This document shows positions 4,974 through 61,264 of a DNA stretch of 64,000 bases, in pieces. The DNA is from a virus: positions 1-64,000 of the IMG/VR virus record IMGVR_UViG_3300006790_000001; one strand, given 5' to 3'. Positions within the stretch are counted from its first letter, which is position 1. The number at the start of each line of letters is the position of its first letter. The notes beneath the pieces are model-generated. The model searched no databases and was not told where the DNA came from. It saw only the letters and a program-made list of their open reading frames with translations. The translations under genes and the position numbers were made by a program.

Positions 4974-7762
4974 GTTTCGATGACGATTTCACGTTCAACA
5001 TCATCGGCGAACTGGGATTCGACACTGACGAGGTCAGCGTTCAAGATGTCGAGCGAACTGTTGCTCGCCTCCGTGAACAACTTGAACAGCTGAATGATCC
5101 AATACCAATTAGCGCTCAGCAGCGACGCTTTGAGGAATACCAGACCGGCTTTCTTAACTTGCTCCAGGAGCAGGAAAAGCTGGTAAGCGCTGATCAAGAG
5201 CGGGCTGCGATTCAAGAACAGATCACCTCATTGGTTGAGCGGCAGAGCGAGGTAGTTCAGCAGATTGCTGCTGAACAGAGGGAAGCTTTCTTCCCGCCTC
5301 AGCTGTCGGTCAGCGATCAAGAGCTTGATCAAATATTCAGCGTCCCCGACGTTGAAGAATCGGGGTTATCGCAGGTAATCCAGACGAGCGATCAGTTTTT
5401 GAAACGGCTGGCTCGCACCGCTGGTACTGCTGCCACTTTGCTAAACACAGTCCGAGCAATTCCTCGCGGCATCAATGCCATCGGCGAAGCAGCTAGAGAG
5501 CAAGCCGCATCCATTGCTGATTCGTTTGATCAGATCGGAGTTCCGATTCAGGAACAGGCTGATTTGATTCGCACTGATCTAATTGCTGCTCAGATAGAAG
5601 CAGAGGCTGGTTGGGGCGATTATGCGTCATCAATCGCCGCTGCTGCGATCGATTCGATTCCGTTCATCGGGAGCCTTCGTCAAGAAATTGCTCAGCTGAC
5701 GGCTGACACTGAGCTGACAGCTTTGAGCGTCGTTCCGTTTCTTCAGGACATTCAGACCGAAAGTGCTGCTGCGGCTGAAGCGTTCGGGAAATTGGTGAAT
5801 GCGGGCAGTCAAGAAGAACTTGATCGGGCCATAGCTGACATCAGAGCTTTGACAGAGGAAGAGCTGTTCGGCCAATTGGTTGACACCCCCGTACTGGAAG
5901 AAGCCCGGGCAGCTATTGAAGATTTCGTCAATGATGCGGTTCGCAACTTTGATGCCCTTGAAGAATCGAACAGGAGAGTTATTGAGGCCCAAGGCGGGTT
6001 TGAAGCTTTGACTAATGCAATCTTCAGTGAGGTTTCTCCCGCTCAAGAAGAAGCTGTAGAACTAGCTCGGGCCCTGGGCGAAACTTACTTTGAAACAGGG
6101 CAGATCAGTGAAGCGGCATTTCTGCTGTTAGAAGATGCCGCAAACGAAGCTCGCGTACCAGTTGAAACCTTGTTTGATGAGATGCGGGCTGGCCGGAACG
6201 AAGCTGAGAAAGCAGCTGAAGAGCAGGCTAGGGCTGAGGAAGAGCAAGCTAGGCGGTACGCCGAAGCTAGGGCAGCTGTGGCTGCTTCTCGAACGGCTGA
6301 TCTCCGCAACTTCGAAACTTACATTGCGGGTCTTGAGCAGGGCTACGAAGCTGTCGAAGCGAGCAGGGCGGCCGCTGAAGAGGAATTTGCAGGGGCTCTT
6401 GCTTCAGGGCTAGAGGAGCAGCGGCAGCGGATCGAAGGGCTGCTGCAGATCGACTTCAGCGTCAACACCGAAGACGCGATCGATGACTTTGAGGAACTGA
6501 CCGGGAACATCCAGACCCAGCTTGATCAGTTCAACGCTCGGGAAGCAGCAGCGTTAGAGCTGGTCCCGATTCTTGGCGCAGATTCAGAGGTCATCAAAGC
6601 TCTCCGGGCCGGGAAGCTCGACCAGTTCTTGCAAGGGGAAGGACTGGAACTGTCCGAGGTCGTGAAGCTGGAGCTTCAGCTCGATAAAGTGAATGAAGCC
6701 AAGGCGCTTGCTTTGGCCAACACGGTCGAAGGCAATATCGATCTTGCCACGAGTGCCCTGGATGAGGGTGAGATCCGGGCACTTGGTGGTGTCCCCGGCG
6801 AGTTCCTGATCGAGGGTCTTGAGCAGGCGATCCTTGACGGGGAGATGGACATCACTTCGGCGGTCTTGAGTGTTCTTCGTTCGGCCGAGGCCGCAGCTTT
6901 GGGCCCTGATGGTCTGGAAACTGGGTCGCCTTCGAAGAAGACCTACCAGTGGGGCGAGTGGATGATGGAGGGTCTCGTCAACGGGATTGACGAGAACGCT
7001 AACGCAGTCGCTGACGCTTCGGTTCGCGTGTTCGCCACGGTGGAAGAGGCGCTGGAAGGCAAGCCGCTTTTCCCGGTCGAGATCGACGCCGAAACTCAGG
7101 GGTTGCTCGATGCGATCGTGGCGCAACGGCCCGAGCCGAGTCGAGACTCGACAGCTAATTTCGCTGATTTCCTGAGCGGGCTCCAAGAGGACTTGGCCTC
7201 TGAAGCCGAAGCTGAGGCGGTGAAGCTGCAAAGGTCCGAAGCAGCTGAACGGTTGCGGGCAGCGGGCAACACGTTGTTCGGGGATCTTGTTGCTGCGGGC
7301 AACGCTGACGAGTTGTTGGATGACATCTTGCTCGCCCCGAACCAGGCGGTGTTCGATCAGATCGAGGATCAGTTGGGGATTCAGGGCCAGACGATAGGCG
7401 AAGCCTTGGTTGATGGCCTGGTTGAGGGAGTCGAGGCTTCGGAAGAAGAATACCGCAAGTCTCTGCTGACGCTCGGAGAGTCCGGGTTGCAGGCTCTGAG
7501 AGATGTCATGCTTATTCGGTCGCCGTCCAGGGTGATGTACGACATCGGCGTCAACGTTGTCGAAGGCTTACGGCTCGGCATCACCGAGAACAGCTCTTTG
7601 ATCGACGCAGCAATGACAGGACTCAGCTCGTCCATCGCTGCACCAACCGCCACGCCGGGCAGCGTCGGCGGGTCAGTGGACAACTCGCGGACCGTGAACG
7701 TCTATCCTGCAACAGTTGGCGACGACTTGATACTGGCCAAGATGATTCTCGCTGGACTGTGA
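4970..7762 (+). CDS. tape measure protein
   Basis: 930 aa, overwhelmingly Ala/Glu/Leu/Gln-rich and helical. C-terminal ..IRSPSRVMYDIGVNVVEGLRLGI.. resembles the conserved tape-measure motif. Preceded by a chaperone pair and followed by minor tail genes. Confidence 0.8.
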   Translation: MSFDDDFTFNIIGELGFDTDEVSVQDVERTVARLREQLEQLNDPIPISAQQRRFEEYQTGFLNLLQEQEKLVSADQERAAIQEQITSLVERQSEVVQQIAAEQREAFFPPQLSVSDQELDQIFSVPDVEESGLSQVIQTSDQFLKRLARTAGTAATLLNTVRAIPRGINAIGEAAREQAASIADSFDQIGVPIQEQADLIRTDLIAAQIEAEAGWGDYASSIAAAAIDSIPFIGSLRQEIAQLTADTELTALSVVPFLQDIQTESAAAAEAFGKLVNAGSQEELDRAIADIRALTEEELFGQLVDTPVLEEARAAIEDFVNDAVRNFDALEESNRRVIEAQGGFEALTNAIFSEVSPAQEEAVELARALGETYFETGQISEAAFLLLEDAANEARVPVETLFDEMRAGRNEAEKAAEEQARAEEEQARRYAEARAAVAASRTADLRNFETYIAGLEQGYEAVEASRAAAEEEFAGALASGLEEQRQRIEGLLQIDFSVNTEDAIDDFEELTGNIQTQLDQFNAREAAALELVPILGADSEVIKALRAGKLDQFLQGEGLELSEVVKLELQLDKVNEAKALALANTVEGNIDLATSALDEGEIRALGGVPGEFLIEGLEQAILDGEMDITSAVLSVLRSAEAAALGPDGLETGSPSKKTYQWGEWMMEGLVNGIDENANAVADASVRVFATVEEALEGKPLFPVEIDAETQGLLDAIVAQRPEPSRDSTANFADFLSGLQEDLASEAEAEAVKLQRSEAAERLRAAGNTLFGDLVAAGNADELLDDILLAPNQAVFDQIEDQLGIQGQTIGEALVDGLVEGVEASEEEYRKSLLTLGESGLQALRDVMLIRSPSRVMYDIGVNVVEGLRLGITENSSLIDAAMTGLSSSIAAPTATPGSVGGSVDNSRTVNVYPATVGDDLILAKMILAGL

Positions 7763-7763
7763 C

Positions 7764-10700
7764 ATGACCTACAACGTTGGGTTCCTTGAAGTCGACGGTG
7801 TCCGCATCGTGGACGGCTGCAGGTTGAAGCATTATTTGACCGCAGCCGGACCGGACCGGCCGCACCCGTCGTGGAACGCTCCCAACGATTGCCCGGATCA
7901 TTGTTGCGACGAGGACGCAGGGGTCTACGCCACTCCTTCGACGGTGTCGAATCCGGCTCCTTGGTGGGACCCTTACCAACCCGCTTCGGCTGATTTCTTC
8001 GGGGTCAACATCCGGTCGATCACGCGATCAGGCGGGTACAACACCAAGACAGAAGAAGGGAACCCGCTTCCTGCTATCCGCGAGGATACCAAGCAGTACC
8101 TGTTCATCGATGCTGAGATCGTCAGCTCGTCGTGTGAGGGGACCCGGTTCGGCGAAGAGTGGTTGAACCGGTTGTTTGCTAATTCGTGTACTGCGACCGG
8201 CGGCGCTGAGGTGACGTTCAGGCAGCATTGCGATTACGTTCGCCCGGCGACGCAGACGCTGGACGATGAGCTGCATTTCTACAGTGCTGGCGGGGCCACG
8301 ATCTATGCCAACTTCGTTCGGGACTATGACGGCACGATTACGGACACGAACCTTGGCGCAGATCTGGGGTTGACGGTTCTGACTGGTTCGTCGGAGGGCG
8401 ATGGTTCTGCTTGGGCGATCGACGGTTCTCAGAATTTGTTGTTCATCAACCCGGAGCTGGCGGTGGCGACGGTCACGTTGCCGATCGCCGGTCTGCACAC
8501 TGGGAACGTCACTGGCCTGGCTTGGTGGGGCGGCGTTCTGTACGGGATCACTTCGACGTTTGAGCTGTTGCGGTTGAATTGCACGACTGGTGTGACGACC
8601 GTGTTGGCGGGTCCGTTCACTGGGGTGGCGGCTGATCCTTGGTTGGGTGTGAACGCTGACGGGTTCTATGTGCCGAGTGCTACGGCTTCGACTATCGCCA
8701 CCATCGATAGCTCTGGCGAGACGTTGGCGGCTACCGATGTGTTCTCGGCGAGCGGGACGGTGACTTACGGGCAGTCTGCGCCGGATGGCCGGTTCTATGC
8801 TTTGATCACTGGGACCGGTTTCGCTGAGTTGATCAATCTGGCTGGCGGCGGGTTGGGTGGCGAGCTGGTGTTGGATGCTGCGCCGAACGAAACGTTGTTC
8901 GCCCCTTGGTGGCGGTCCGATCAGTTGGTGACTGTGCCATCTGAGACCGTGTACGGCAAGCGGGTGATGAGTGGCGTGCAGTTGACTCAGCCGATTCGGA
9001 TCGTGCCCGATGAGATGTTCCCTGATTGTTGTGCTGGGGGGCGGATCGAGATCGTTCTTGAGTCGAGGTTGCCGCGTTTGCATTTGCCGTCGAGGGAGTT
9101 GTGGGCGGTCGACTTGCAGTCGCCGACGTTCACTGGGGTACTTCCGAAGTTAGATCCGGCTCCGATCCCGGCGGCTGTTGAAGAGGTTTCTGCCCAGTTG
9201 AATCGGGTTGACAGGAATGTGAAGTTGTTCCGGGACGGGACTTGGTGTGATGTCAATCCTTCTTTCTCGACGGCGGATAATCCGTGTTATCGGCTGGTCG
9301 TGACTGAGTGGGAGGATTACACGTCGCCAGCGGATACCGACGAGTACGGAATCGTGGTCTACTACGATGGGCTTTCTAGGTCTCCGGGAATCTGGTCCTG
9401 GGAGCCGGTGAATGCTGCGTTGGAGTTGTCTTGCGATAAGACGGTCACGATTTCGCAGGTGCTGGTGAAGAACCCTACGTACACGCCTGAGGATAGTTCT
9501 TGCTCTGATTCTGAGCGGGCTTGTGCGGAATTGTGGGGGTTCGGCGTTGATGATGATGGGTTCCTTACGAACTTGCCGCCCCTCCTGACCAACTCTGAAA
9601 TTTGCGACGAAAACGCTTACTGGCTTTCTTCGGGGTGGACGCAGGCTGCCATCGATTACGGCTTCGACCGTTACTTCAATTATCTGGTTTGCGTTGGGGC
9701 CCAGACCGATAGAGACATAACTATCACGGACACGTTTCTGAGCACGATGAAGTCCGATTGTGCAGCTAACGGGGGCGTCGCGGGCCTCATCAAGATGAAG
9801 GTCGATGGCACTGGGGCCGTCTTATTCATTGCGAGCGGGAACTCTGGCTGCACAGGCACTTTCTGCGATCCCGAGGCCGACTGTCAGCAATATGTTATTG
9901 ATGCCCCTGGCATGAACGTCGCCGCTTCCCAATCAGGCGACAACGTCTTTGGTGGTCTCTGCGAATCGAGCGGCACTATTAACAGCGCCGGGCCGAACGC
10001 GATCCCGGCCGCTTCTGCTCTGGACCTGTCCAGCCAGCCCGATATCTGTCAACAGTGGGTCGATGTCAGCACGGGCACTAGCGGGACCCCGTTTGTTGTA
10101 GAACTCACCAACGACTCGACACCCTCCGATCTCGGTTCCTTTGCTGTTAACCCAACCTGGAACGTGAAGTCCCCGACAGACTTGGCGTTTGAGAGAACGA
10201 ACGGCCGGTTCGTCGCGAACGGTGTTTCAATTTGCACTATCAACCCTGAACTGTGCAACGAGATCGGCAACATCACGCTCACGGAAGGCCCCGACACTTG
10301 GACCGCTAACAGCTGGGGTCACGACACCTTTGCCACGTTCCCACCTGAAGGGTTCATCGGTTTCGAAGACAGCGCTCAAACTACTGCCGACTGCGACGCC
10401 ATCGTTTCTCTGACCAGGATCGAGGGCGAACCGAATTGTCAGATCTGCACCGGCCGTCTGTGTTCGGGCGGTCACCCGATCGAACCGTACCGGGAACGGC
10501 GCAGCTGTTGGGGTGCCCCATTGACCGGGAACGGGTGGGCGCAAACGTTCACGCTGGAGGGCGGCGACCTGGACCTGTACGACCTTGAATGGTCGATCGA
10601 GACCGGGTCCACGTCTCTTGATGGGACGTCGATCGAGGTCTACCCATTTGTTGAGCCGTACGGGCCTGGCCGGTTGGATTCGATCTGGTGGTACCGCCAA

Positions 10701-15047: not shown

Positions 15048-15238
15048 TGGCTATCAGCAAGGCCATGGAGATGGCGATATTGCAGGACGAGCTGCGAGAC
15101 AAATTGCAGTCGTCGACTGATCTGGAGAACCCGATTACTATTGGGTCGGTCGAGATCAGAACCGGACAGAATGGTGCAGTCGAAGCTTGGCTGGTGAATC
15201 GTCAGACAGGTAACGCGATGAAACTAGGTGAAGCATGA
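15044..15238 (+). CDS. hypothetical protein (64 aa)
   Basis: ORF coupled at both ends (ATGA overlaps at 15044-15047 and 15235-15238). Confidence 0.45.
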   Translation: MMAISKAMEMAILQDELRDKLQSSTDLENPITIGSVEIRTGQNGAVEAWLVNRQTGNAMKLGEA

Positions 15239-16179
15239 GTACAAGCTGTTCCGTTTGCGGAGGATTCTCATGTGTTTGCCCACCGTCTGCTGGTTGGACA
15301 CCCCCTACTTATACGGGTCGGGGATTCGTCGTTGACAGTGATGGGACGCTGAACGTCGACCGGACCTTCGCCGCTTGTGTGGAAGACACCAATGGCGACC
15401 GGTTCACGATGATCTATGACCCAGCCACCGACTCGGCTGAGTACGAGCCGCTGGACACTACGGCCTTGACCCCTGTGGGTACTTTGATTTCGTGCGCCGG
15501 GTTCCATAACTTCGGTTGCGTCGATGATGGCGTGCAGCAGTGGCTGATCATGCCGAGTGCTGACGGGTTGAGCACTGTGTTCGTTGACCCGACGACTGGG
15601 GTGGCGGGGACTCCTGGGGCTTCGTACGCTCCATGTGGCGGGTATCCGTTGGCGTCGGATACGTCGGCGGGGATTGTTGAGTTGGCGACTGGAGCGGAGG
15701 TGGCGGCTGGGACCGACTCGACGCGTGCGGTCACGCCTGACTCTGCCAAGTCGATCGGTGCTGGCAACTTTGTTGATATTCAGAGGTTCAACCAGTCCGG
15801 TTTGGGGTTGACTCACACGACATTGATGGGCGCTTACGCCCAAGCGGGGGTCACTCAGACGTGGAACAGGCCGACGGGTTGGAACACTTACGATCTCCAC
15901 GTCCTTAGCGGCCAAGCCGAAGTGAATATCACGCTTGCCGATCAGTTCTACGTGGGTGTGAGAATTAATAGCGACACGACTTCTTACGGTTTGAATGACA
16001 ATTGGCGAGGGTCTTCTAGCTCCCAGACCATAGGGCTTATTCATACTCCTGTGTTGGGAGAGTCGGCAGCTACTTACAACTTTGACATGGAGTACAGGCT
16101 GTTAGCCATTGCTGGTACTAGCCCAACGTTTACGTTCTCTAGTTACGACTTCTTAGTACTTGCGATAAGGCAGTCGTGA
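15235..16179 (+). CDS. tail fiber-like protein
   Basis: Contains GIVELATGAEVAAGTDSTRAVTP (about 15670-15738), a motif I recognise from many phage tail fiber proteins. N-terminus is Cys-rich (CSVCGGFSCVC). Confidence 0.55.
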   Translation: MSTSCSVCGGFSCVCPPSAGWTPPTYTGRGFVVDSDGTLNVDRTFAACVEDTNGDRFTMIYDPATDSAEYEPLDTTALTPVGTLISCAGFHNFGCVDDGVQQWLIMPSADGLSTVFVDPTTGVAGTPGASYAPCGGYPLASDTSAGIVELATGAEVAAGTDSTRAVTPDSAKSIGAGNFVDIQRFNQSGLGLTHTTLMGAYAQAGVTQTWNRPTGWNTYDLHVLSGQAEVNITLADQFYVGVRINSDTTSYGLNDNWRGSSSSQTIGLIHTPVLGESAATYNFDMEYRLLAIAGTSPTFTFSSYDFLVLAIRQS

Positions 16180-17789: not shown

Positions 17790-18092
17790 ATGAAGCTCAA
17801 CGACGTGTTGTTGGCGATCGGGATTAGTCACACGCAGCTTTATCGGATCCGGCACGCTAAGCGGTTGCCATCGTTCGGTGCGTTCGCTCGGTTGTGTGAG
17901 GTGTTGGAGATGGACAGCGCCGATGTTGTCGATCTCATGGTGGGGCTGATGTATCAGGACATGGAGCTGGTCGATGCTGTTCTGCGTAAATACATTCACA
18001 ACCTGAAGCCATTGAATACTGACGCCTTGAATCGCGGGTGGGAGAAAGAGTCCGGGAAGAATCGAGTGCAGAGGTGGGTCAATGTTGACTGA
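17790..18092 (+). CDS. helix-turn-helix DNA-binding protein
   Basis: 100 aa from ATG 17790. LNDVLLAIGISHTQLYRIRHAKRLPSFGAFARL reads as an XRE-like HTH. First gene of the rightward replication operon. Confidence 0.55.
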   Translation: MKLNDVLLAIGISHTQLYRIRHAKRLPSFGAFARLCEVLEMDSADVVDLMVGLMYQDMELVDAVLRKYIHNLKPLNTDALNRGWEKESGKNRVQRWVNVD

Positions 18093-19431
18093 AGACGATC
18101 TGTACCCATACCAAGCGGATGGGGTTGCGTGGCTGCGTCAAGGGGGGCGTCGTCTGCTTGGTGACGACCCTGGGTTGGGGAAGACGCCGCAGGCGTTGAT
18201 CGCTGCGAAGGGTCCTTGTTTGGTGGTGGCCCGGTCGACGTTGCACGGCCAGTGGGCCGAGGAGGCTGAGCGGTGGAGGCCCGACCTGGAGCTGACCATC
18301 GCCACGTATCAGGGCACTGCTTTGCGGGATGGGCGAAGGATCGTTAAGGGCCGGATCCGGGCGGATTTAGATCGGGAGTGGGGGACGATCATCTTTGATG
18401 AGGCGACGGCCTTGAAGGGGCGGAAGGCCAATGTCGCCAAGGTCGCCGAGAAGCTGGTGGAGCGGACCGAGAACGCTTACCTGTTGAGCGGGACGCCGAT
18501 CCCGAATTGGGCGCATGAGTGGTTTCAGTTGTTGAGGATCATGCGGCCTGAGGGGGTTGATGTCGGTTCGTATTGGCGATGGGTTGGCCATTGGTTCGAT
18601 CAGCACGAGGTGACGTTTCAGCGGGGCAAGCGGCCGACGAAGATTATTGGGGGGTTGCAGTCTCGGTGGACGTGGGATGACTTCATCACTCAGAACAGTT
18701 TGGACAAAGTCTATTTGGGGCGTCGGAAGGAGGATCATTTGCCGGGGTTGCCGCCGTTGACGGTGACGCCGATGGCCATTGAGATGCCACCGGCTCAGCG
18801 GAAGCTGTATGAGTCGTTGAAGAAGGATTATGTGGCTTGGGTTGAGGAGACCGGCGAAGAGGTTTCGGCTTGGTCGTCGGGGGGGTTGCACACCAAGTTG
18901 CGGAAGGCTGCAACTGGGGTTCCGGTTGTTGCGCCGGATTCTCCTGGCCCGGCGGCCAAGGTGCAGGCTGCGATCGACTTAGCGGTTGACCAGTTGCCGG
19001 TGGTGATGTTCTGCCATTACCGCCGGTCGGTTGAGTTCACTGCGGCTGAGGCTGAGCGGCAGGGGTTGAAGGCCCGATCGATTATGGGCGGGATGAAGGC
19101 CGATGAGATCGACGAGGTTCGTCAGGCGTTTCAGTCGGGTGAGGTCGATGTGTTGGTGGGGACGTTTGAGATGATGTCGGAGGGGCTGACCTTGCATCGG
19201 GCAAATTTGGGGATCATGATCGAGAAGAGCTTTCGGCCTGATCTGAATCAGCAGGCCATGGACCGGTTGCATCGGATTGGGCAGGGTCGTCCGGTGACCA
19301 TTGTTGATCTGTATTCGGCGGGGACTGTGGACGAGGGTCAGCGGAAGTTGTTGGATGAGAAGTTGGCTGAGACGGGGGCGTTGATGGGGGAGCTGAGGTT
19401 GAGCGCCGGGAAATTTTTGGCTCTGATCTAA
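18082..19431 (+). CDS. SNF2/RAD54-family helicase
   Basis: DDPGLGKTPQAL (motif I), FDEATALKG (DEAx box), LLSGTPIPN (motif III), and C-terminal ..DRLHRIGQGRPVTIVDL (motif VI). Confidence 0.85.
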   Translation: MLTEDDLYPYQADGVAWLRQGGRRLLGDDPGLGKTPQALIAAKGPCLVVARSTLHGQWAEEAERWRPDLELTIATYQGTALRDGRRIVKGRIRADLDREWGTIIFDEATALKGRKANVAKVAEKLVERTENAYLLSGTPIPNWAHEWFQLLRIMRPEGVDVGSYWRWVGHWFDQHEVTFQRGKRPTKIIGGLQSRWTWDDFITQNSLDKVYLGRRKEDHLPGLPPLTVTPMAIEMPPAQRKLYESLKKDYVAWVEETGEEVSAWSSGGLHTKLRKAATGVPVVAPDSPGPAAKVQAAIDLAVDQLPVVMFCHYRRSVEFTAAEAERQGLKARSIMGGMKADEIDEVRQAFQSGEVDVLVGTFEMMSEGLTLHRANLGIMIEKSFRPDLNQQAMDRLHRIGQGRPVTIVDLYSAGTVDEGQRKLLDEKLAETGALMGELRLSAGKFLALI

Positions 19432-25702: not shown

Positions 25703-25905
25703 CCATGAGCGTTTGTCAGTGTTGCAACGACCGGCGGGCCGAGGTCCGTCTGGAGGGGATAGCTCAGTCTGATCTTGATCGGGTCGCTGGGGTCGTGTTG
25801 GTGTGCGATCGGATGGACTGTTACTGGGACGGTTGCGGCCGCATCAAGTCGCTGATCCGTAAGCCATTCGTTCGTTTGGTGGCGCTCGACGATGTCGAGC
25901 AGTGA
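25699..25905 (+). CDS. hypothetical Cys-containing protein (68 aa)
   Basis: Coupled ORF. The pairs CQCC ... C..MDC could be metal-binding. Confidence 0.4.
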   Translation: MTMSVCQCCNDRRAEVRLEGIAQSDLDRVAGVVLVCDRMDCYWDGCGRIKSLIRKPFVRLVALDDVEQ

Positions 25906-26290
25906 CGCCGCCGCCGCCGCCGCCGCTTCCGCTGCCGCTGCTGGCGGTGGCGGTGGGGCAGGCGGTGACGGGGTGAATGAGTTGACGGTCGTCTGGTCGA
26001 CGCACGAGGAAGCGATGCGGACCGGCGAGTTCACGGTTTGGGTACGGAGCGGGACCCATGTTGTTGGCGGTCCGTGGCGGTTCGCTTTCGACGATGCGGC
26101 CAGATTCTTCGACGATTACGTGGCGATGATCGGCGGCCGCATGCTCGGCGTCGTTTCGGCCGTCCACGAGACTCAAGCAGCGGCAGCCATGGAAGCACGG
26201 CTCGACAAACTCGCCGAGGACCGCGAAGTCGACGAGGTCATCGGCTCAGACTCAGCGTGGCTGAAATGGTTCAACAGCGGCGAACTCTGA
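25892..26290 (+). CDS. hypothetical protein with an Ala/Gly-rich N-terminus
   Basis: 132-aa ORF. The N-terminus is encoded by a (GCC)6 microsatellite followed by GCT/GGC repeats. Confidence 0.45.
   Translation: MSSSDAAAAAAASAAAAGGGGGAGGDGVNELTVVWSTHEEAMRTGEFTVWVRSGTHVVGGPWRFAFDDAARFFDDYVAMIGGRMLGVVSAVHETQAAAAMEARLDKLAEDREVDEVIGSDSAWLKWFNSGEL
25907..25924 (+). repeat. (GCC)6 trinucleotide microsatellite inside a CDS
   Basis: Six perfect GCC units counted directly from the sequence. Confidence 0.9.
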
Positions 26291-26391
26291 TCTGTCGGTC
26301 CGGGTGCGGACATCGGGGTCATCGCCCGGACCGACAACCATCCAACCGTCCCCGAAATAGGGCAAAGGAACGCAATTGTATGGTGCCACCC

Positions 26392-26419
26392 TTGACAGAC
26401 TTGACACGGCTAGTAGACT
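26392..26419 (+). promoter_or_regulatory. sigma-70/SigA-type promoter upstream of the A+C-rich block
   Basis: TTGACA (26392-26397), 16-nt spacer, TAGACT (26414-26419). The -10 overlaps the left arm of a 12-bp inverted repeat: CTAGTAGACTCC at 26410-26421 and GGAGTCTACTAG at 26474-26485. Confidence 0.5.
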
Positions 26420-26531
26420 CCCGGCGAAGAGCGCTGCGCAGCCTTCCGCGGAGCGGCGGCTCGCACGCCTTCTGGAGTCTACTAGAAACGTCGAACAAAC
26501 GTTCTGGGGGCGTACAAATGGACCGGGAACC

Positions 26532-26987
26532 ATGAAACAAATAATCGGAATCGACCCAGGCGAAACCACCGGCATAGCCATCCTCACACTCAACGAGGAT
26601 GGCTCAATCGCGCACAAACAAACACACACAATCCAACAAACAACCCCACCCGAAATAGCAGCCGCAACCTGGCTACAAACCTGGCTAACACAATCAACAA
26701 ACCGCCAAATCACACACACAACCGTAATAATCGAAGACTACAAACTCCGACTAGAAACAGCCTCACTACACATAAACCAACCACTCACAACAGCCGAAAC
26801 AATCGGCGCACTACAACACACCACCTCACAACACCCCAACACCACAACCCACAAACAACAACCCACAATCAAGAAACCAACAACCCGACAACTACACGCA
26901 CGAAACATCCCACTAACCGGAAACAACCGACACGAAAAAGACGCCGAACTACACGCCCACTACCACCACCTAAGAAACCACCAATGA
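26532..26987 (+). CDS. RuvC-like Holliday junction resolvase (extreme A+C-rich codons)
   Basis: 151 aa from ATG 26532. IIGIDPGETTGIA (catalytic Asp motif), VIIEDY (Glu), and NRHEKDAELHA (H..D) match the order of RuvC catalytic residues. Confidence 0.6.
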   Translation: MKQIIGIDPGETTGIAILTLNEDGSIAHKQTHTIQQTTPPEIAAATWLQTWLTQSTNRQITHTTVIIEDYKLRLETASLHINQPLTTAETIGALQHTTSQHPNTTTHKQQPTIKKPTTRQLHARNIPLTGNNRHEKDAELHAHYHHLRNHQ

Positions 26988-27211
26988 CCCAACTCACCTA
27001 CTTCCTACTAGGCACCACATACGGCACCGTCGCAGGAATCACCGGACTAGACCACTGGAACACCCACGGCAAACCAGCCAACCCCAGATACACCCTCCTC
27101 TGGACACGCCGCTCAATCTGGGCAGCCACCACATGGCCCATAGGACTCCTCTACTGGACCACCCTCAAACTCACCCAACACTGGACACAACACACACGAG
27201 ACAACCAATGA
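26984..27211 (+). CDS. small membrane protein (75 aa)
   Basis: Two hydrophobic segments (YFLLGTTYGTVAGITGL and IWAATTWPIGLLYWTTL). ATGA-coupled at both ends. Lies in the A+C-rich block. Confidence 0.45.
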   Translation: MTQLTYFLLGTTYGTVAGITGLDHWNTHGKPANPRYTLLWTRRSIWAATTWPIGLLYWTTLKLTQHWTQHTRDNQ

Positions 27212-27615
27212 ACCCCACCACACCCACAACCCTCACCACACTCACCACACTCGGCCTAGCCACATGGCGACTCACCCAACTATGGCAACAAGACACCATC
27301 ACACAACCACTACGAAACAAACTCACACACTGGCTACAACACACACAACCCGACGGCACCCCACACTGGATCACACACAACCCCGACGGCACAACACAGA
27401 TCGACCCACAAAAACAAAGACCCACACAACTACAAGACCTCGCAAACTGGGCACAAGAACTACACACCTGCACACGCTGCCTCTCAGTCTGGATAGCCGC
27501 CACACTCACACTCGCACAACACAAACGACCCCACCCCACACAACTACTCACAACAGCACTCGCAGCAGCCGCAATAAACAACCTCCTAGAAACCACCCCA
27601 CCCCCCACAAACTGA
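27208..27615 (+). CDS. DUF1360-like membrane protein
   Basis: LATWRLTQLWQQDTITQPLR ... CTRCLSVWIAATL resembles the DUF1360 pattern (a.yRlt.L...D.It.P.R ... C.wC.svW.a) from memory. Lies in the A+C-rich block. Confidence 0.45.
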   Translation: MNPTTPTTLTTLTTLGLATWRLTQLWQQDTITQPLRNKLTHWLQHTQPDGTPHWITHNPDGTTQIDPQKQRPTQLQDLANWAQELHTCTRCLSVWIAATLTLAQHKRPHPTQLLTTALAAAAINNLLETTPPPTN

Positions 27616-27645
27616 CCCCACAGGAACACACACAACACAGTGCGC

Positions 27646-27664
27646 TCGGGCGCTTTGCGCCCGG
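27646..27664 (+). terminator. hairpin at the end of the A+C-rich operon
   Basis: GGGCGC-TTT-GCGCCC, extendable by one C-G pair and one U-G pair. Followed by a G/T-rich tract rather than a clean T-run. Confidence 0.3.
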
Positions 27665-27665
27665 C

Positions 27666-27743
27666 TGGGGTGTTGTGGTTTGTCGCGGGTTGGTGCGGGT
27701 TGGGGCGGGCGAGTCTTTGCGGGGCGGCTAGGGAGGGGCGGGG
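27666..27743 (+). repeat. G-tract cluster (nine runs of G3-G4 within 78 nt)
   Basis: GGGG or GGG at 27667, 27687, 27697, 27702, 27707, 27721, 27731, 27735 and 27740. In 27661-27720 I counted 1 A and 10 C out of 60 nt. Confidence 0.8.
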
Positions 27744-27765
27744 CGGCGCAGTCTTGCGAGGCGCT

Positions 27766-27845
27766 GAATTCTTCGCGGCTCGCCGGACCCCCGCCGGGCT
27801 CGAGAATTCTGCGGCGCGACTCGGAAATTCTTGCGGCGCTCGACC
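27766..27845 (+). repeat. three iteron-like direct repeats, consensus (G/A)AATTCT(T)GCGGCGC
   Basis: GAATTCTTCGCGGCTCGCC (27766-27784), GAATTCTGCGGCGCGACTC (27804-27822), and AAATTCTTGCGGCGCTCGACC (27825-27845). Confidence 0.6.
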
Positions 27846-27930
27846 CCCCGGCTGCGCGTGCGCCCTTTCGTGGAGCCACCGCCGAAACCCCGGACAGGGT
27901 GTTCTCGGTATTTAGGGTGTTTCCCTCCGT

Positions 27931-27959
27931 TTGACGTTGCACCGGCCGGGTGCTAGGAT
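27931..27959 (+). promoter_or_regulatory. sigma-70/SigA-type promoter driving a leaderless transcript
   Basis: TTGACG (27931-27936), 17-nt spacer, TAGGAT (27954-27959), then 6 nt to ATG 27966. The spacer contains the dyad GCACC-GGCCG-GGTG. Confidence 0.6.
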
Positions 27960-28534: not shown

Positions 28535-28818
28535 TGACCCGCATCCCCGCCAAGGACCTGAAGCCGGGCGACTTGGTCCGTGTCCACTCGATGGAGTGCA
28601 AGGTCCTCGCCGCCGAGCCCGCTTTCGACGGCCGGGTCCGGCTCACCATGGAGTGCGTCGCCGAGTGGGGCGGCGACCCGAGCGACATCGGCTGGGTCTA
28701 CACCTACTCGATCGGCCCGAACGTCATGTACATGCCGGGCGACGGCACGACCGGTTCGATCCCCACTGTCGGCGAGGCGCTCGCCGATCTGCTCGACAAC
28801 AAGGAAGGTTCCCGATGA
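28534..28818 (+). CDS. hypothetical protein (94 aa)
   Basis: Coupled ORF. The C-terminal DNKEGSR is encoded by the 29-nt junction repeat. Confidence 0.5.
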   Translation: MTRIPAKDLKPGDLVRVHSMECKVLAAEPAFDGRVRLTMECVAEWGGDPSDIGWVYTYSIGPNVMYMPGDGTTGSIPTVGEALADLLDNKEGSR

Positions 28819-28821
28819 GCA
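28793..28821 (+). repeat. 29-nt exact junction repeat, copy 1
   Basis: TCGACAACAAGGAAGGTTCCCGATGAGCA is identical to 29029-29057. It spans the C-terminal codons, a Shine-Dalgarno sequence (AAGGAAGG) and the ATGA start/stop overlap. Confidence 0.9.
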
Positions 28822-29054
28822 TTACTTTCACTTCACTGGGCGGCACCCGCCCCCTCTACCTCGTCGAAGCCGACGGCGAGACGGTCGGGATCGTCGGCAA
28901 GACCGAGACGGCCACCCGGTCCTACTGGTACGCCCTCGATGCGGACCACAAGAGGATCGACCATCCCCGGTTCGACGCCGACGGCTACGAGATCGACCGC
29001 ACCCGTAAGCGGGTGACGAAAGCTCTGATCGACAACAAGGAAGGTTCCCGATGA
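28815..29054 (+). CDS. hypothetical protein (79 aa)
   Basis: ATG 28815 lies within an ATGA overlap. The protein also ends DNKEGSR. Confidence 0.5.
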   Translation: MSITFTSLGGTRPLYLVEADGETVGIVGKTETATRSYWYALDADHKRIDHPRFDADGYEIDRTRKRVTKALIDNKEGSR

Positions 29055-29057
29055 GCA
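29029..29057 (+). repeat. 29-nt exact junction repeat, copy 2
   Basis: Identical to 28793-28821. Confidence 0.9.
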
Positions 29058-30952: not shown

Positions 30953-30987
30953 TCAACCCAACCCAACCCAACCCACGGAGGTTCCAC

Positions 30988-60430: not shown

Positions 60431-61264
60431 ATGGGTAGCTGGGCCACGCTCGCTGACCTATTTGATTGCTGCCCATCTGGCGACTTTCAGAAGCAAACAG
60501 GGATCACGCTGCCCAGCAACTGGGACGGCGTGGTCCCTGCGCCTTCTGGCGGCGCTCACGAGGCTTGGTGGACGTCTCTGAACACTGCGCAGCAGAACTC
60601 GCTTCTGGCTGCTCAGGACGTTCTGGACGCCGCTCAGCAGTGGCTGCACCAGAAGACGTGTCACAAGTGGCCTGGGATCACGACTAGAACGATCTGGTTG
60701 GATCCTGAGTGCAGGTATGACCCGATTGATCTGAGTCTTGAGCTTGGTCGGGTCGAGTCAATTGTTCAGGTCGTTGAGTATGTCGAGCCTGTTGTTTCGG
60801 GGACCACTGGCACGGTCAGTGTGGTGGACTCGGATACGTACCGGCTTGAGGATCATGCTGTTCTGGTTCGTCAGGCGACTGACAGTAAGCCGGATCCTTG
60901 GCCGGAACAGGACGGCGATTTGCCGTTGGGTTATCCGGGGACTTGGAACGTTCAGTTGCAACTTGGGGAGATGCCGGGGAAGCTGCACACGTTGGCGGTC
61001 GCTCAGTTGGGTTGCGATCTTCTTAGCGTTTGTTTGCTGACGCCTTCGGCGTGTGACACGTTGCCTGAAGGTGTCACGTCGATGAACCGTAATGGGGTTA
61101 CGTTGACGGTGCGTTCGATGCTTGAGGCGCTTCAGGCTGGCGGAACCAATAATGAGTTCACTGATATGTTCTTGAACGCTTATGGCTGTGATCGTGGTGA
61201 CTATGCCGGGATGAGAGATCCGGCTGATGTGTCTCCGTTTATAGCTGTAGGCGATGCTGAATGA
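60431..61264 (+). CDS. hypothetical structural protein (277 aa)
   Basis: Track ORF in the structural run. Confidence 0.5.
   Translation: MGSWATLADLFDCCPSGDFQKQTGITLPSNWDGVVPAPSGGAHEAWWTSLNTAQQNSLLAAQDVLDAAQQWLHQKTCHKWPGITTRTIWLDPECRYDPIDLSLELGRVESIVQVVEYVEPVVSGTTGTVSVVDSDTYRLEDHAVLVRQATDSKPDPWPEQDGDLPLGYPGTWNVQLQLGEMPGKLHTLAVAQLGCDLLSVCLLTPSACDTLPEGVTSMNRNGVTLTVRSMLEALQAGGTNNEFTDMFLNAYGCDRGDYAGMRDPADVSPFIAVGDAE

Follow-up and report, generated by a model that had tools for sequence, protein, structure and literature searches.

Near-absence of G and T at silent sites of a three-gene phage unit, with the reverse strand skew in a relative

The window analyzed here, a 64-kb stretch (64,000 nucleotides) of IMG/VR virus record IMGVR_UViG_3300006790_000001, belongs to an uncultured, actinophage-like genome and contains a 1.1-kb block (26532-27640; block coordinates are given on the + strand) in which three consecutive genes are almost free of G and T at their silent sites. 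The first of these open reading frames (ORFs) encodes a RuvC-like Holliday-junction resolvase of 151 amino acids (26532..26987, + strand), the second is a Trp-rich ORF of 75 amino acids with two hydrophobic stretches (26984..27211, +), and the third encodes a DUF1360-family protein of 135 amino acids with a CxxC motif (27208..27615, +). Profile searches matched the first product to phrog_1981 (2.9e-13) and to phrog_1770 'Holliday junction resolvase' (3.3e-5). Its AlphaFold2 model (predicted local distance difference test, pLDDT, 90.7; predicted template modelling score, pTM, 0.87) had as its best PDB matches the bacterial RuvC structures 7w8d, 6lw3 and 1hjr (template modelling scores of 0.62-0.67, top E-value 1.6e-6), and residues D8, E68, H134 and D137 are invariant in the RuvC family alignment. 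Judging from the modelled RNase H-like fold and the acidic catalytic residues, the protein is a predicted RuvC-like resolvase. The second ORF is joined to both neighbours via ATGA stop/start overlaps and was also called as a gene in two independent contigs from Logan and JGI; Pfam and PHROG profile scans found no homologue of it. The third product matched Pfam PF07098 (E-value 2.4e-14, 53.6 bits against a cut-off of 21) and also phrog_781, and its CxxC aligns with that of the DUF1360 protein on a related metagenomic contig, L004. The DUF1360 gene contains an internal 36-nt duplication at 27326-27392 (HWLQHTQPDGTP / HWITHNPDGTT), and the L004 protein has a Gly-rich insertion at the corresponding loop.

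The unit is set between phage operons by its own promoter and by hairpins on either side. To the left, a terminator-like hairpin with 19-bp arms (26293..26336, +, an inverted repeat; fold of -33.6 kcal/mol, z = -3.9) closes the upstream operon and forms the left insulator of the unit. It is followed by a sigma-70/SigA-type promoter, TTGACA-16-TAGACT, with a tandem CTTGACAG ACTTGACA -35 motif (26392..26419, +). The structured leader (26411..26531, +) has a normal composition, with A+C counts of 14-19 per 30 nt in the 112 nt to the ATG. It carries a 12-bp inverted repeat, CTAGTAGACTCC / GGAGTCTACTAG, at 26411-26422 / 26474-26485, and the fold of 26420-26545 reaches -47 kcal/mol (z = -2.4). To the right, a GC hairpin (GGGCGC TTT GCGCCC) sits in a longer stem at 27640..27680 (+), formed between the A/C-rich operon 3' end and the subsequent G/T-rich stretch. 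This structure, weakly supported by its fold (z = -1.2), probably acts as terminator and marks the right boundary. The window's strongest G/T segment (27666..27743, +, 83% G+T) lies 26 nt past the strongest A+C segment, so that the amino/keto skew sharply reverses its sign, and it holds two tandem G-quadruplex (G4) motifs (27687-27709 and 27721-27743) out of five in the 64 kb. A telomere-like perfect G4 motif, GGGTTGGGTTGGGTTGGG, occurs on the - strand at 30957-30974. Beyond the G/T segment lies a regulatory spacer (27750..27959, +) in which (A)ATTCT(T)GCGGCGC-like motifs recur both directly and inverted; it ends in the next promoter, the consensus match TTGACG-17-TAGGAT (27931-27959, +). Only three TTGAC-N17-19-TANNNT sites were detected in the 64 kb, two of which flank the block on the + strand. 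No Rfam families were found in the window.

Over 26532-27640 the + strand consists of 37.8% A, 40.6% C, 12.3% G and 9.4% T, that is 78.4% A+C, compared with 49.4% across the entire window. A previous sequence-only reading had described a block of ~88% A+C. The extreme skew stands, and so do the underlying counts (6 G and 8 T in the 120 nt of 26761-26880, i.e., 88%, and 30 of 60 in the normal stretch 26221-26280), but 88% is a local peak and not the overall value. As that reading anticipated, the skew is an outlier when computed in sliding windows: 1109-nt windows outside the block had an A+C of 0.489 ± 0.043 with a maximum of 0.576, which places the block at z = 6.9. The core of the skew is the segment 26613..27639 (+, 79% A+C), which has the highest A/C score in the 64 kb and includes 24 non-coding nt 3' of the last stop. 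No 200-nt window elsewhere in the 64 kb exceeded an A+C of 0.65. The bias extends over 25 non-coding nt 3' of the last stop. At the 5' side the leader is unbiased and the skew begins at the ATG, not at the promoter; the earlier claim that the bounds of the block coincide with one transcription unit thus does not simply hold.

The bias follows coding constraint, with A or C at 91-95% of third, 66-76% of first and 57-70% of second codon positions. Third positions are A or C in 95%, 91% and 94% of the codons of the first, second and third ORF, respectively; A alone occupies 33-51% of them, versus 2-16% in 32 other genes, and T only 0-1%. ATG or TGG codons account for 17 of the 22 third positions that are G or T. 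At degenerate third positions 339/344 (98.5%) are A or C, in agreement with the earlier statement that nearly all are, and the four-fold sites comprise 102 A, 98 C, 1 G and 0 T (200/201 A or C, 99.5%). The block is therefore a strand-coordinated, one-directional cluster in which G and T are both depleted throughout one strand, and this saturation wipes out any dinucleotide-context signal. A simple or tandem repeat was ruled out as the cause of the skew, the block being non-repetitive. Gene-to-gene amino/keto heterogeneity in this genome has a standard deviation (SD) of 0.049, at the high end of the compared loci. Milder third-position skews of the opposite sign were observed in an SNF2-type helicase gene at 18082-19431 (G 0.57, T 0.22, A+C 0.20-0.21) and in an unannotated ORF of 277 amino acids at 60431-61264 (G+T 0.74).

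A chimeric contig, or damaged or converted reads, might produce such a block, and its odd composition is all that speaks for an artefact of this kind. Two other public assemblies, however, carry the block at ~99.9% identity. A 12.2-kb contig from Logan SRR11048275 (L002) matches the window at 99.89% over 12.2 kb, with contiguous flanks on both sides of the block, and a 1.4-kb contig from JGI 3300025093 (L003) that also includes it matches at 99.86%. Each has private single-nucleotide polymorphisms (SNPs) and encodes the same three proteins. Moreover, reading frames, stop/start overlaps and family-conserved residues are intact, and the model of the first protein folds confidently as RuvC. Since assemblies from independent data sets carry the block, we reject the artefact explanation, to which we attach next to no credence. 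Within the block the three assemblies differ at three SNPs, all at synonymous third positions: 26873 (G in the window, A in L002), 27393 (A in the window, G in both other contigs) and 27588 (A in the window, C in L003). Two of them are G/A differences at the rare residual silent G sites; in each of these the allele seen only once is A, in a different genome, which hints at an ongoing loss of G, although three sites are too few to rely on. The most polymorphic spot of the 12 kb compared lies upstream of the unit, at 25892-25970, where an ORF of 132 amino acids begins with an Ala/Gly homopolymer tract that shows four SNPs and a 3-nt indel versus L002.

From their sequences, the three ORFs look functional. 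The GIDPGE, IIEDY and HEKDA motifs, the Trp codons (14 TGG) and the CxxC survive, as the sequence-only reading had stated, and each ORF ends in TGA (three stops). Relative to the genome, the block proteins contain 19.9% Thr (7.1% in the genome), 8.9% Gln (3.1%) and 6.9% His (1.9%), an enrichment of about three times, and only 0.8% Val (7.4%) and 0.3% Phe (3.4%), with Gly, Asp, Glu and Ser depleted as well. In the RuvC protein, 51.7% of residues are those with A/C-only codons (Thr, His, Gln, Asn, Pro and Lys), versus 25.1 ± 4.0% in the family, represented by 148 RuvC-like sequences from a HMMER scan of 1.84 billion proteins; the richness in these six residues noted from the sequence is thus borne out. 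Where G and T are left at codon positions 1 and 2, they tend to fall in conserved columns of the alignment (rho 0.42, p 2e-7). A perfect 10-bp hairpin within the RuvC gene (AGCCATCCTC / GAGGATGGCT, an inverted repeat at 26576..26604, +; the fold of 26560-26620 is -20.7 kcal/mol, z = -5.1) coincides with further exceptions. Three of the five silent G/T exceptions of the block cluster at 26595-26612: two (GAG and GAT) form part of the 3' arm of this hairpin, and the third (GCG, 26610-26612) falls just outside it, where an outer stem is predicted. The earlier picture of a directional pressure that selection has filtered therefore holds, with residual G and T retained at conserved residues or in the hairpin. 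A tRNA-based explanation of codon choice was rejected, as the single tRNA-Thr(CGT) of the window reads ACG, a codon absent from the block. The gene for this tRNA (15589-15668) lies inside a mechanically called ORF (15235-16179) that may be no gene.

The PrimPol-helicase encoded upstream of the block has two moderately close metagenomic relatives (61% and 55% identity), and one of them, L004 (61%), carries a counterpart of the unit. Its RuvC-like gene (7376-7885) is followed by a DUF1360 gene (8049-8567), and the same tandem -35 motif occurs between the two, upstream of the DUF1360 gene (7881-7915). The coding strand of this cassette is skewed in the reverse sense: it is G+T-rich, with A+C down to 0.25 in 300-nt windows, a value outside the 0.1% tail for 660 kb of related loci. 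The fraction of G+T at third positions (GT3) is 0.75 and 0.74 in the two genes, versus 0.43-0.57 in the twelve genes up to 6196, and the purine fraction at these positions is nearly constant (0.53-0.56). Whereas the skew of the window rises and falls sharply within 1.1 kb, that of L004 forms a 2.4-kb gradient. GT3 climbs through four unrelated upstream genes (0.61, 0.60, 0.62 and 0.67) before it reaches 0.75 in the cassette, and the skewed zone (6193-8570, ~2.4 kb) covers two transcription units, crosses a promoter and ends abruptly at 8570, before palindromic GCGCACAGTTC / GAACTGTGCGC repeats (8640-8760) near the contig end at 8785. Such a gradient through unrelated genes is a distance-dependent pattern at the DNA level and is not gene-specific. 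Five of the six G4 motifs of L004 fall within the skewed cassette zone. The L004 RuvC protein is the extreme of its family in the opposite way, with Gly, Val, Trp, Cys and Phe making up 37.9% of residues versus 21.6 ± 3.3%. The two cassettes thus share an extreme amino/keto strand asymmetry that takes either polarity relative to the genes.

Direct comparison of the two cassettes gave a third-position identity of 17%, versus 44% for PrimPol. In contrast, the identity of third positions as purine or pyrimidine was 61%, against 63% for PrimPol (p = 4e-4 versus chance), and the ratio of transitions to transversions was ~1.0, compared with 0.4-0.8. Among ~10 RuvC contexts examined, RuvC and DUF1360 genes were adjacent only in the window phage and L004, and the position of the cassette relative to neighbouring genes differs between them. 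On this sequence evidence, common descent of the two cassettes would rest on synteny, with orthology unproven. L004, the only relative, is itself near saturation and equidistant from ordinary homologues, so that substitutions are not recoverable site by site.

These observations bear directly on selection for a nucleic-acid property of the operon, in which fitness would drive the composition and an early resolvase and two small proteins would benefit. A G/U-poor mRNA cannot fold on itself, offers no out-of-frame start or stop triplets and few mixed amino/keto endoribonuclease, toxin or restriction motifs, comes from palindrome-free DNA, and would be an ideal substrate for Rho or ribosome loading. 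In keeping with this, the predicted minimum free energy of the block mRNA is only -0.09 to -0.15 kcal/mol/nt, versus -0.39 ± 0.045 elsewhere in the window, i.e., 3-4 times weaker and 5-7 SD out. The block runs from the first ATG to the terminator while the structured leader keeps its normal composition, the ATGA overlaps couple the genes without G-rich Shine-Dalgarno sites, and the promoter of the unit is among very few of the consensus host type. The two synonymous exceptions that form the perfect hairpin also imply that selection on structure acts here. On the other hand, the G/T-rich L004 cassette obtains none of the proposed benefits: its RNA folds normally (-0.38 to -0.45 kcal/mol/nt) and ordinary palindromic sites are present, and its skew gradient enters unrelated genes and crosses a promoter. 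Because the L004 cassette folds like other genes, an unstructured transcript is not the shared property, and the earlier suggestion of an A/C-only mRNA that cannot fold, which matches the weak folding in the window, does not extend to the relative. Replacing about half of the residues would be a large protein cost for a gain at the RNA level, and nothing similar was seen in any other of the 148 family members. We consider selection of this kind a doubtful explanation, if a serious one. The normal folding of the L004 RNA and its opposite polarity favour a process acting on DNA strands over selection for an A/C-only mRNA.

The sharp borders also invite an explanation by import of a mosaic, moron-like module from an unsampled donor replicon with pervasive strand skew (for instance one with strongly asymmetric or single-stranded replication), joined at the conserved promoter and leader on one side and at the terminator on the other. 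The unit is isolated, with a promoter of its own and terminators on both flanks, both of its borders are sharp, the position of the cassette relative to its neighbours differs between the window and L004, and the two RuvC proteins are not mutual closest relatives by identity. Nevertheless, no donor-like sequence was recovered: neither a word-indexed search of ~5.8 billion proteins nor the HMMER scan of 1.84 billion representatives yielded compositionally extreme members other than the window protein and that of L004, and no DNA match was found in 50,697 GenBank phages. Megablast, blastn and tblastn detected no close relatives among GenBank phages except for an endonuclease of a Curtobacterium phage at 29%. 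IMG/VR, JGI metagenomes and GTDB, scanned with PrimPol, RuvC and DUF1360 profiles, yielded nothing but distant loci free of skew, and no donor lineage of the same composition was found in any of these collections. Likewise, ~1.6 Mb of fetched viral and metagenomic loci contained no other non-repetitive block of this kind. The pairing of RuvC with DUF1360 and the tandem -35 motif were restricted to the two PrimPol-related phages, which suggests that the cassette is native to this lineage, and import would merely shift the question to the donor. We therefore regard it as unlikely.

A few weaker or unrelated features emerged from the same searches. Across 0.94 Mb of unrelated viral loci a single further extreme block turned up, a giant-virus (ACACAA)n microsatellite that we discarded, and a scan for the tandem promoter motif elsewhere yielded chance matches only. 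Two distant high-GC PrimPol contigs contained milder stretches (0.6-0.8 kb) unrelated to RuvC or DUF1360, one with a G-rich coding strand (L014, 4540-5200, A+C 0.27) and one with a C-rich coding strand (L035, 12300-13100, A+C 0.71). One RuvC family member, P0050, was mildly rich in Thr and His. Downstream of the block in the window, a 34-nt direct repeat (97% identical; 28788-28821 and 29024-29057) occupies the 3' ends of consecutive small genes, both of which encode a C-terminus ending in ...DNKEGSR.

The reading that we tentatively favour is a local, DNA-level, strand-asymmetric mutation pressure of the transition type, filtered by selection. The minus strand would have undergone C→T and A→G changes, such as deamination of exposed single-stranded DNA yields, which on the coding strand equal G→A and T→C. 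This pressure would have run to saturation wherever the proteins and one RNA or DNA hairpin tolerate change, while purifying selection would retain the catalytic residues, Trp codons, CxxC and stop/start overlaps. Its cause would be a property of this stretch of DNA, for example that one strand is recurrently single-stranded. The near-equal use of A and C at four-fold sites (102:98, or 51:49) is close to the purine-to-pyrimidine balance of normal genes of this genome (purine fraction at third positions, R3 = 0.44), and thus fits a conversion by transitions of purines to A and pyrimidines to C. In addition, when the protein is set against the family consensus, the most frequent replacements (V>T, V>I, G>N and R>K) need only G→A and T→C, as do A>T, E>K, R>H, Y>H and I>T. 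From these patterns we infer mutation rather than selection, a chemistry of deamination, and a cause in the DNA stretch itself. The sequence-only reading had proposed strand-specific deamination filtered by selection, and it is partly supported: the outlier status, the silent-site bias and the polarity of L004 speak for it, while the results on deaminases, origins and sense transcription do not.

Transcription is one possible route to such a pressure, as deamination or R-loop exposure of the non-template strand in a strongly expressed early operon. The unit does have a strong consensus promoter, and L004 shows the polarity that this route predicts, with a G/T-rich coding strand and five of six G4 motifs in the cassette. 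In transcription-associated mutagenesis the non-template (coding) strand gains T and G. The coding strand of the window has lost T and G, which is the opposite, so that the template strand would need to be deaminated; no TTGAC-N17-19-TANNNT consensus promoter antisense to the block exists in the 64 kb, and both points also count against the mutation pressure that we favour. Furthermore, the transcribed leader is unaffected, and in L004 the skew crosses a promoter in a gradient unrelated to the borders of transcription units. Deamination driven by sense transcription is accordingly highly improbable. A diversity-generating retroelement was also rejected, as there was neither a reverse transcriptase domain nor a template copy: a search with 24-mers encoded as purines and pyrimidines gave 9 matches outside the block, versus 8.5 expected by chance.

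Several other results weigh against the favoured mutation pressure. No mechanism was found: a Pfam scan of the 70 ORFs of the window, which covers phage genes only, revealed no phage-encoded deaminase, reverse transcriptase or mutator domain. An origin beside the block, as had been suggested, was not supported, since the cumulative skews have their extremes at ~2.7 and 19.5 kb and no genome-scale, origin-like switch coincides with the block. Both borders are sharp, at the start codon and at the terminator, with the leader unaffected, and such borders fit module exchange or selection equally well. To our knowledge, an equilibrium bias of >100:1 exceeds any known spontaneous strand asymmetry. 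The enrichment in L004 favours G more than a pure transition model would (A>G and A>C replacements), and the SNP evidence amounts to three sites. The window and L004 RuvC proteins are 30% identical to each other, and each is 35-36% identical to ordinary homologues, although opposite drifts from a normal ancestor would produce just such a low identity. Finally, mutation and selection predict the same composition at saturation, and a pure transition process is inseparable from any change towards A or C, since transversions followed by transitions at equilibrium give the same pattern. Selection and import stay alive because of the sharp borders, the spared leader and these equal predictions.

If the favoured mutation pressure is correct, candidate mechanisms are a bounded single-stranded or R-loop state between the flanking structured elements, a gap in the virion DNA, and a recurrent break with resection at a repeat region, which would fit the gradient in L004. 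The stretch is bounded by inverted repeats on one side and by a hairpin and G4 motifs on the other. A bolder proposal, which we advance as speculative and rather doubtful, is that the block represents a natural, locus-confined zone of strand-specific hypermutation in a DNA virus, whose genes have adapted to a two-letter code. A defined double-stranded stretch bounded by structured elements would be recurrently single-stranded, in an R-loop, gapped or targeted by a mutator, C→T and A→G changes would proceed to saturation, and the polarity, set by local architecture, could flip between relatives. If the cause is mutational, one strand would be exposed or targeted more strongly than has been described for phages, at a site that can be mapped directly and could be an origin, a gap, an R-loop or the target of a mutator. 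If it is selective, the block would be the most extreme natural case of genes recoded to suit a property of their RNA or DNA. In both cases it provides a natural experiment on the tolerance of protein families to a near two-letter coding alphabet. No published description of a comparable block was found in the literature searched.

Vertebrate mitochondrial DNA offers the closest compositional parallel. Its L strand is A+C-rich because the H strand, during the time it spends single-stranded, undergoes deamination with C→T and A→G changes. Both systems combine an A+C-rich coding strand with a G+T-rich complement, most strongly at silent sites, and both involve the two transition types on one strand, with protein composition dragged along. 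However, the mitochondrial skew is genome-wide, graded by single-stranded time and unsaturated, as G and T persist at four-fold sites, whereas the phage block comprises 1.1 kb of double-stranded DNA, is ~99% complete at silent sites, has sharp bounds and appears with reversed polarity in a relative. The general background of replication-strand bias has been reviewed (PMC3269016).

Enzymatic, strand-coordinated hypermutation is known from kataegis at resected breaks (PMC6786661), and strand-coordinated damage has been described in long single-stranded DNA (PMC3521656). As in such clusters, the change in the block is strand-coordinated and one-directional over ~1 kb, and either strand can be affected, according to which is exposed. 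Likewise, APOBEC3 enzymes cause G→A hypermutation of retroviruses. Such events act on a single base class, within a sequence context, and a gene hit by them is usually inactivated in a single step. In the block, by contrast, two base classes have been converted while the proteins still appear functional, the state is fixed and common to separate populations, and no phage-encoded deaminase was found. The nearest geometric match is provided by synthetic promoter-targeted mutators, in which T7 RNA polymerase is fused to a deaminase (PMC9437889, PMC12749649). They too act by transitions only, strand-specifically, on a segment from promoter to terminator. Unlike in these engineered systems, the leader of the window is spared, and its polarity would need antisense transcription. 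We know of no natural counterpart of such mutators.

Phage morons and mosaic modules were reportedly described by Hendrix and colleagues. The block resembles them as an autonomous unit that carries its own promoter and terminator and whose composition departs from that of its neighbours. Morons, however, differ in G+C content, whereas here two bases are almost totally lost from one strand, the unit encodes a replication or recombination enzyme, and a relative shows the reverse skew. A further parallel is found at transcription-primed origins, where a G-rich R-loop or G-quadruplex forms at the mitochondrial conserved sequence block (CSB) II (PMC3488243), and GC skew has been linked with R-loops (PMC3787257). 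By analogy, the flip in sign into a G4-rich G/T segment resembles such origins, as two tandem G4 motifs on the non-template strand stand right after the transcription unit amid extreme GC skew; unlike in CSB II, it is C rather than G that abounds on the non-template strand along the extended skewed part of the window.

Matching cassettes of reverse skew suggest that a strand-specific mutation process not described so far acts on this DNA. As a rule, strand asymmetries are weak, extend over the whole genome and arise as by-products of replication or transcription. Set against these systems, the 1.1-kb block presents a novel combination of confinement to ~1 kb, ~99% completeness at silent sites, intact genes and a mirror image in a relative.

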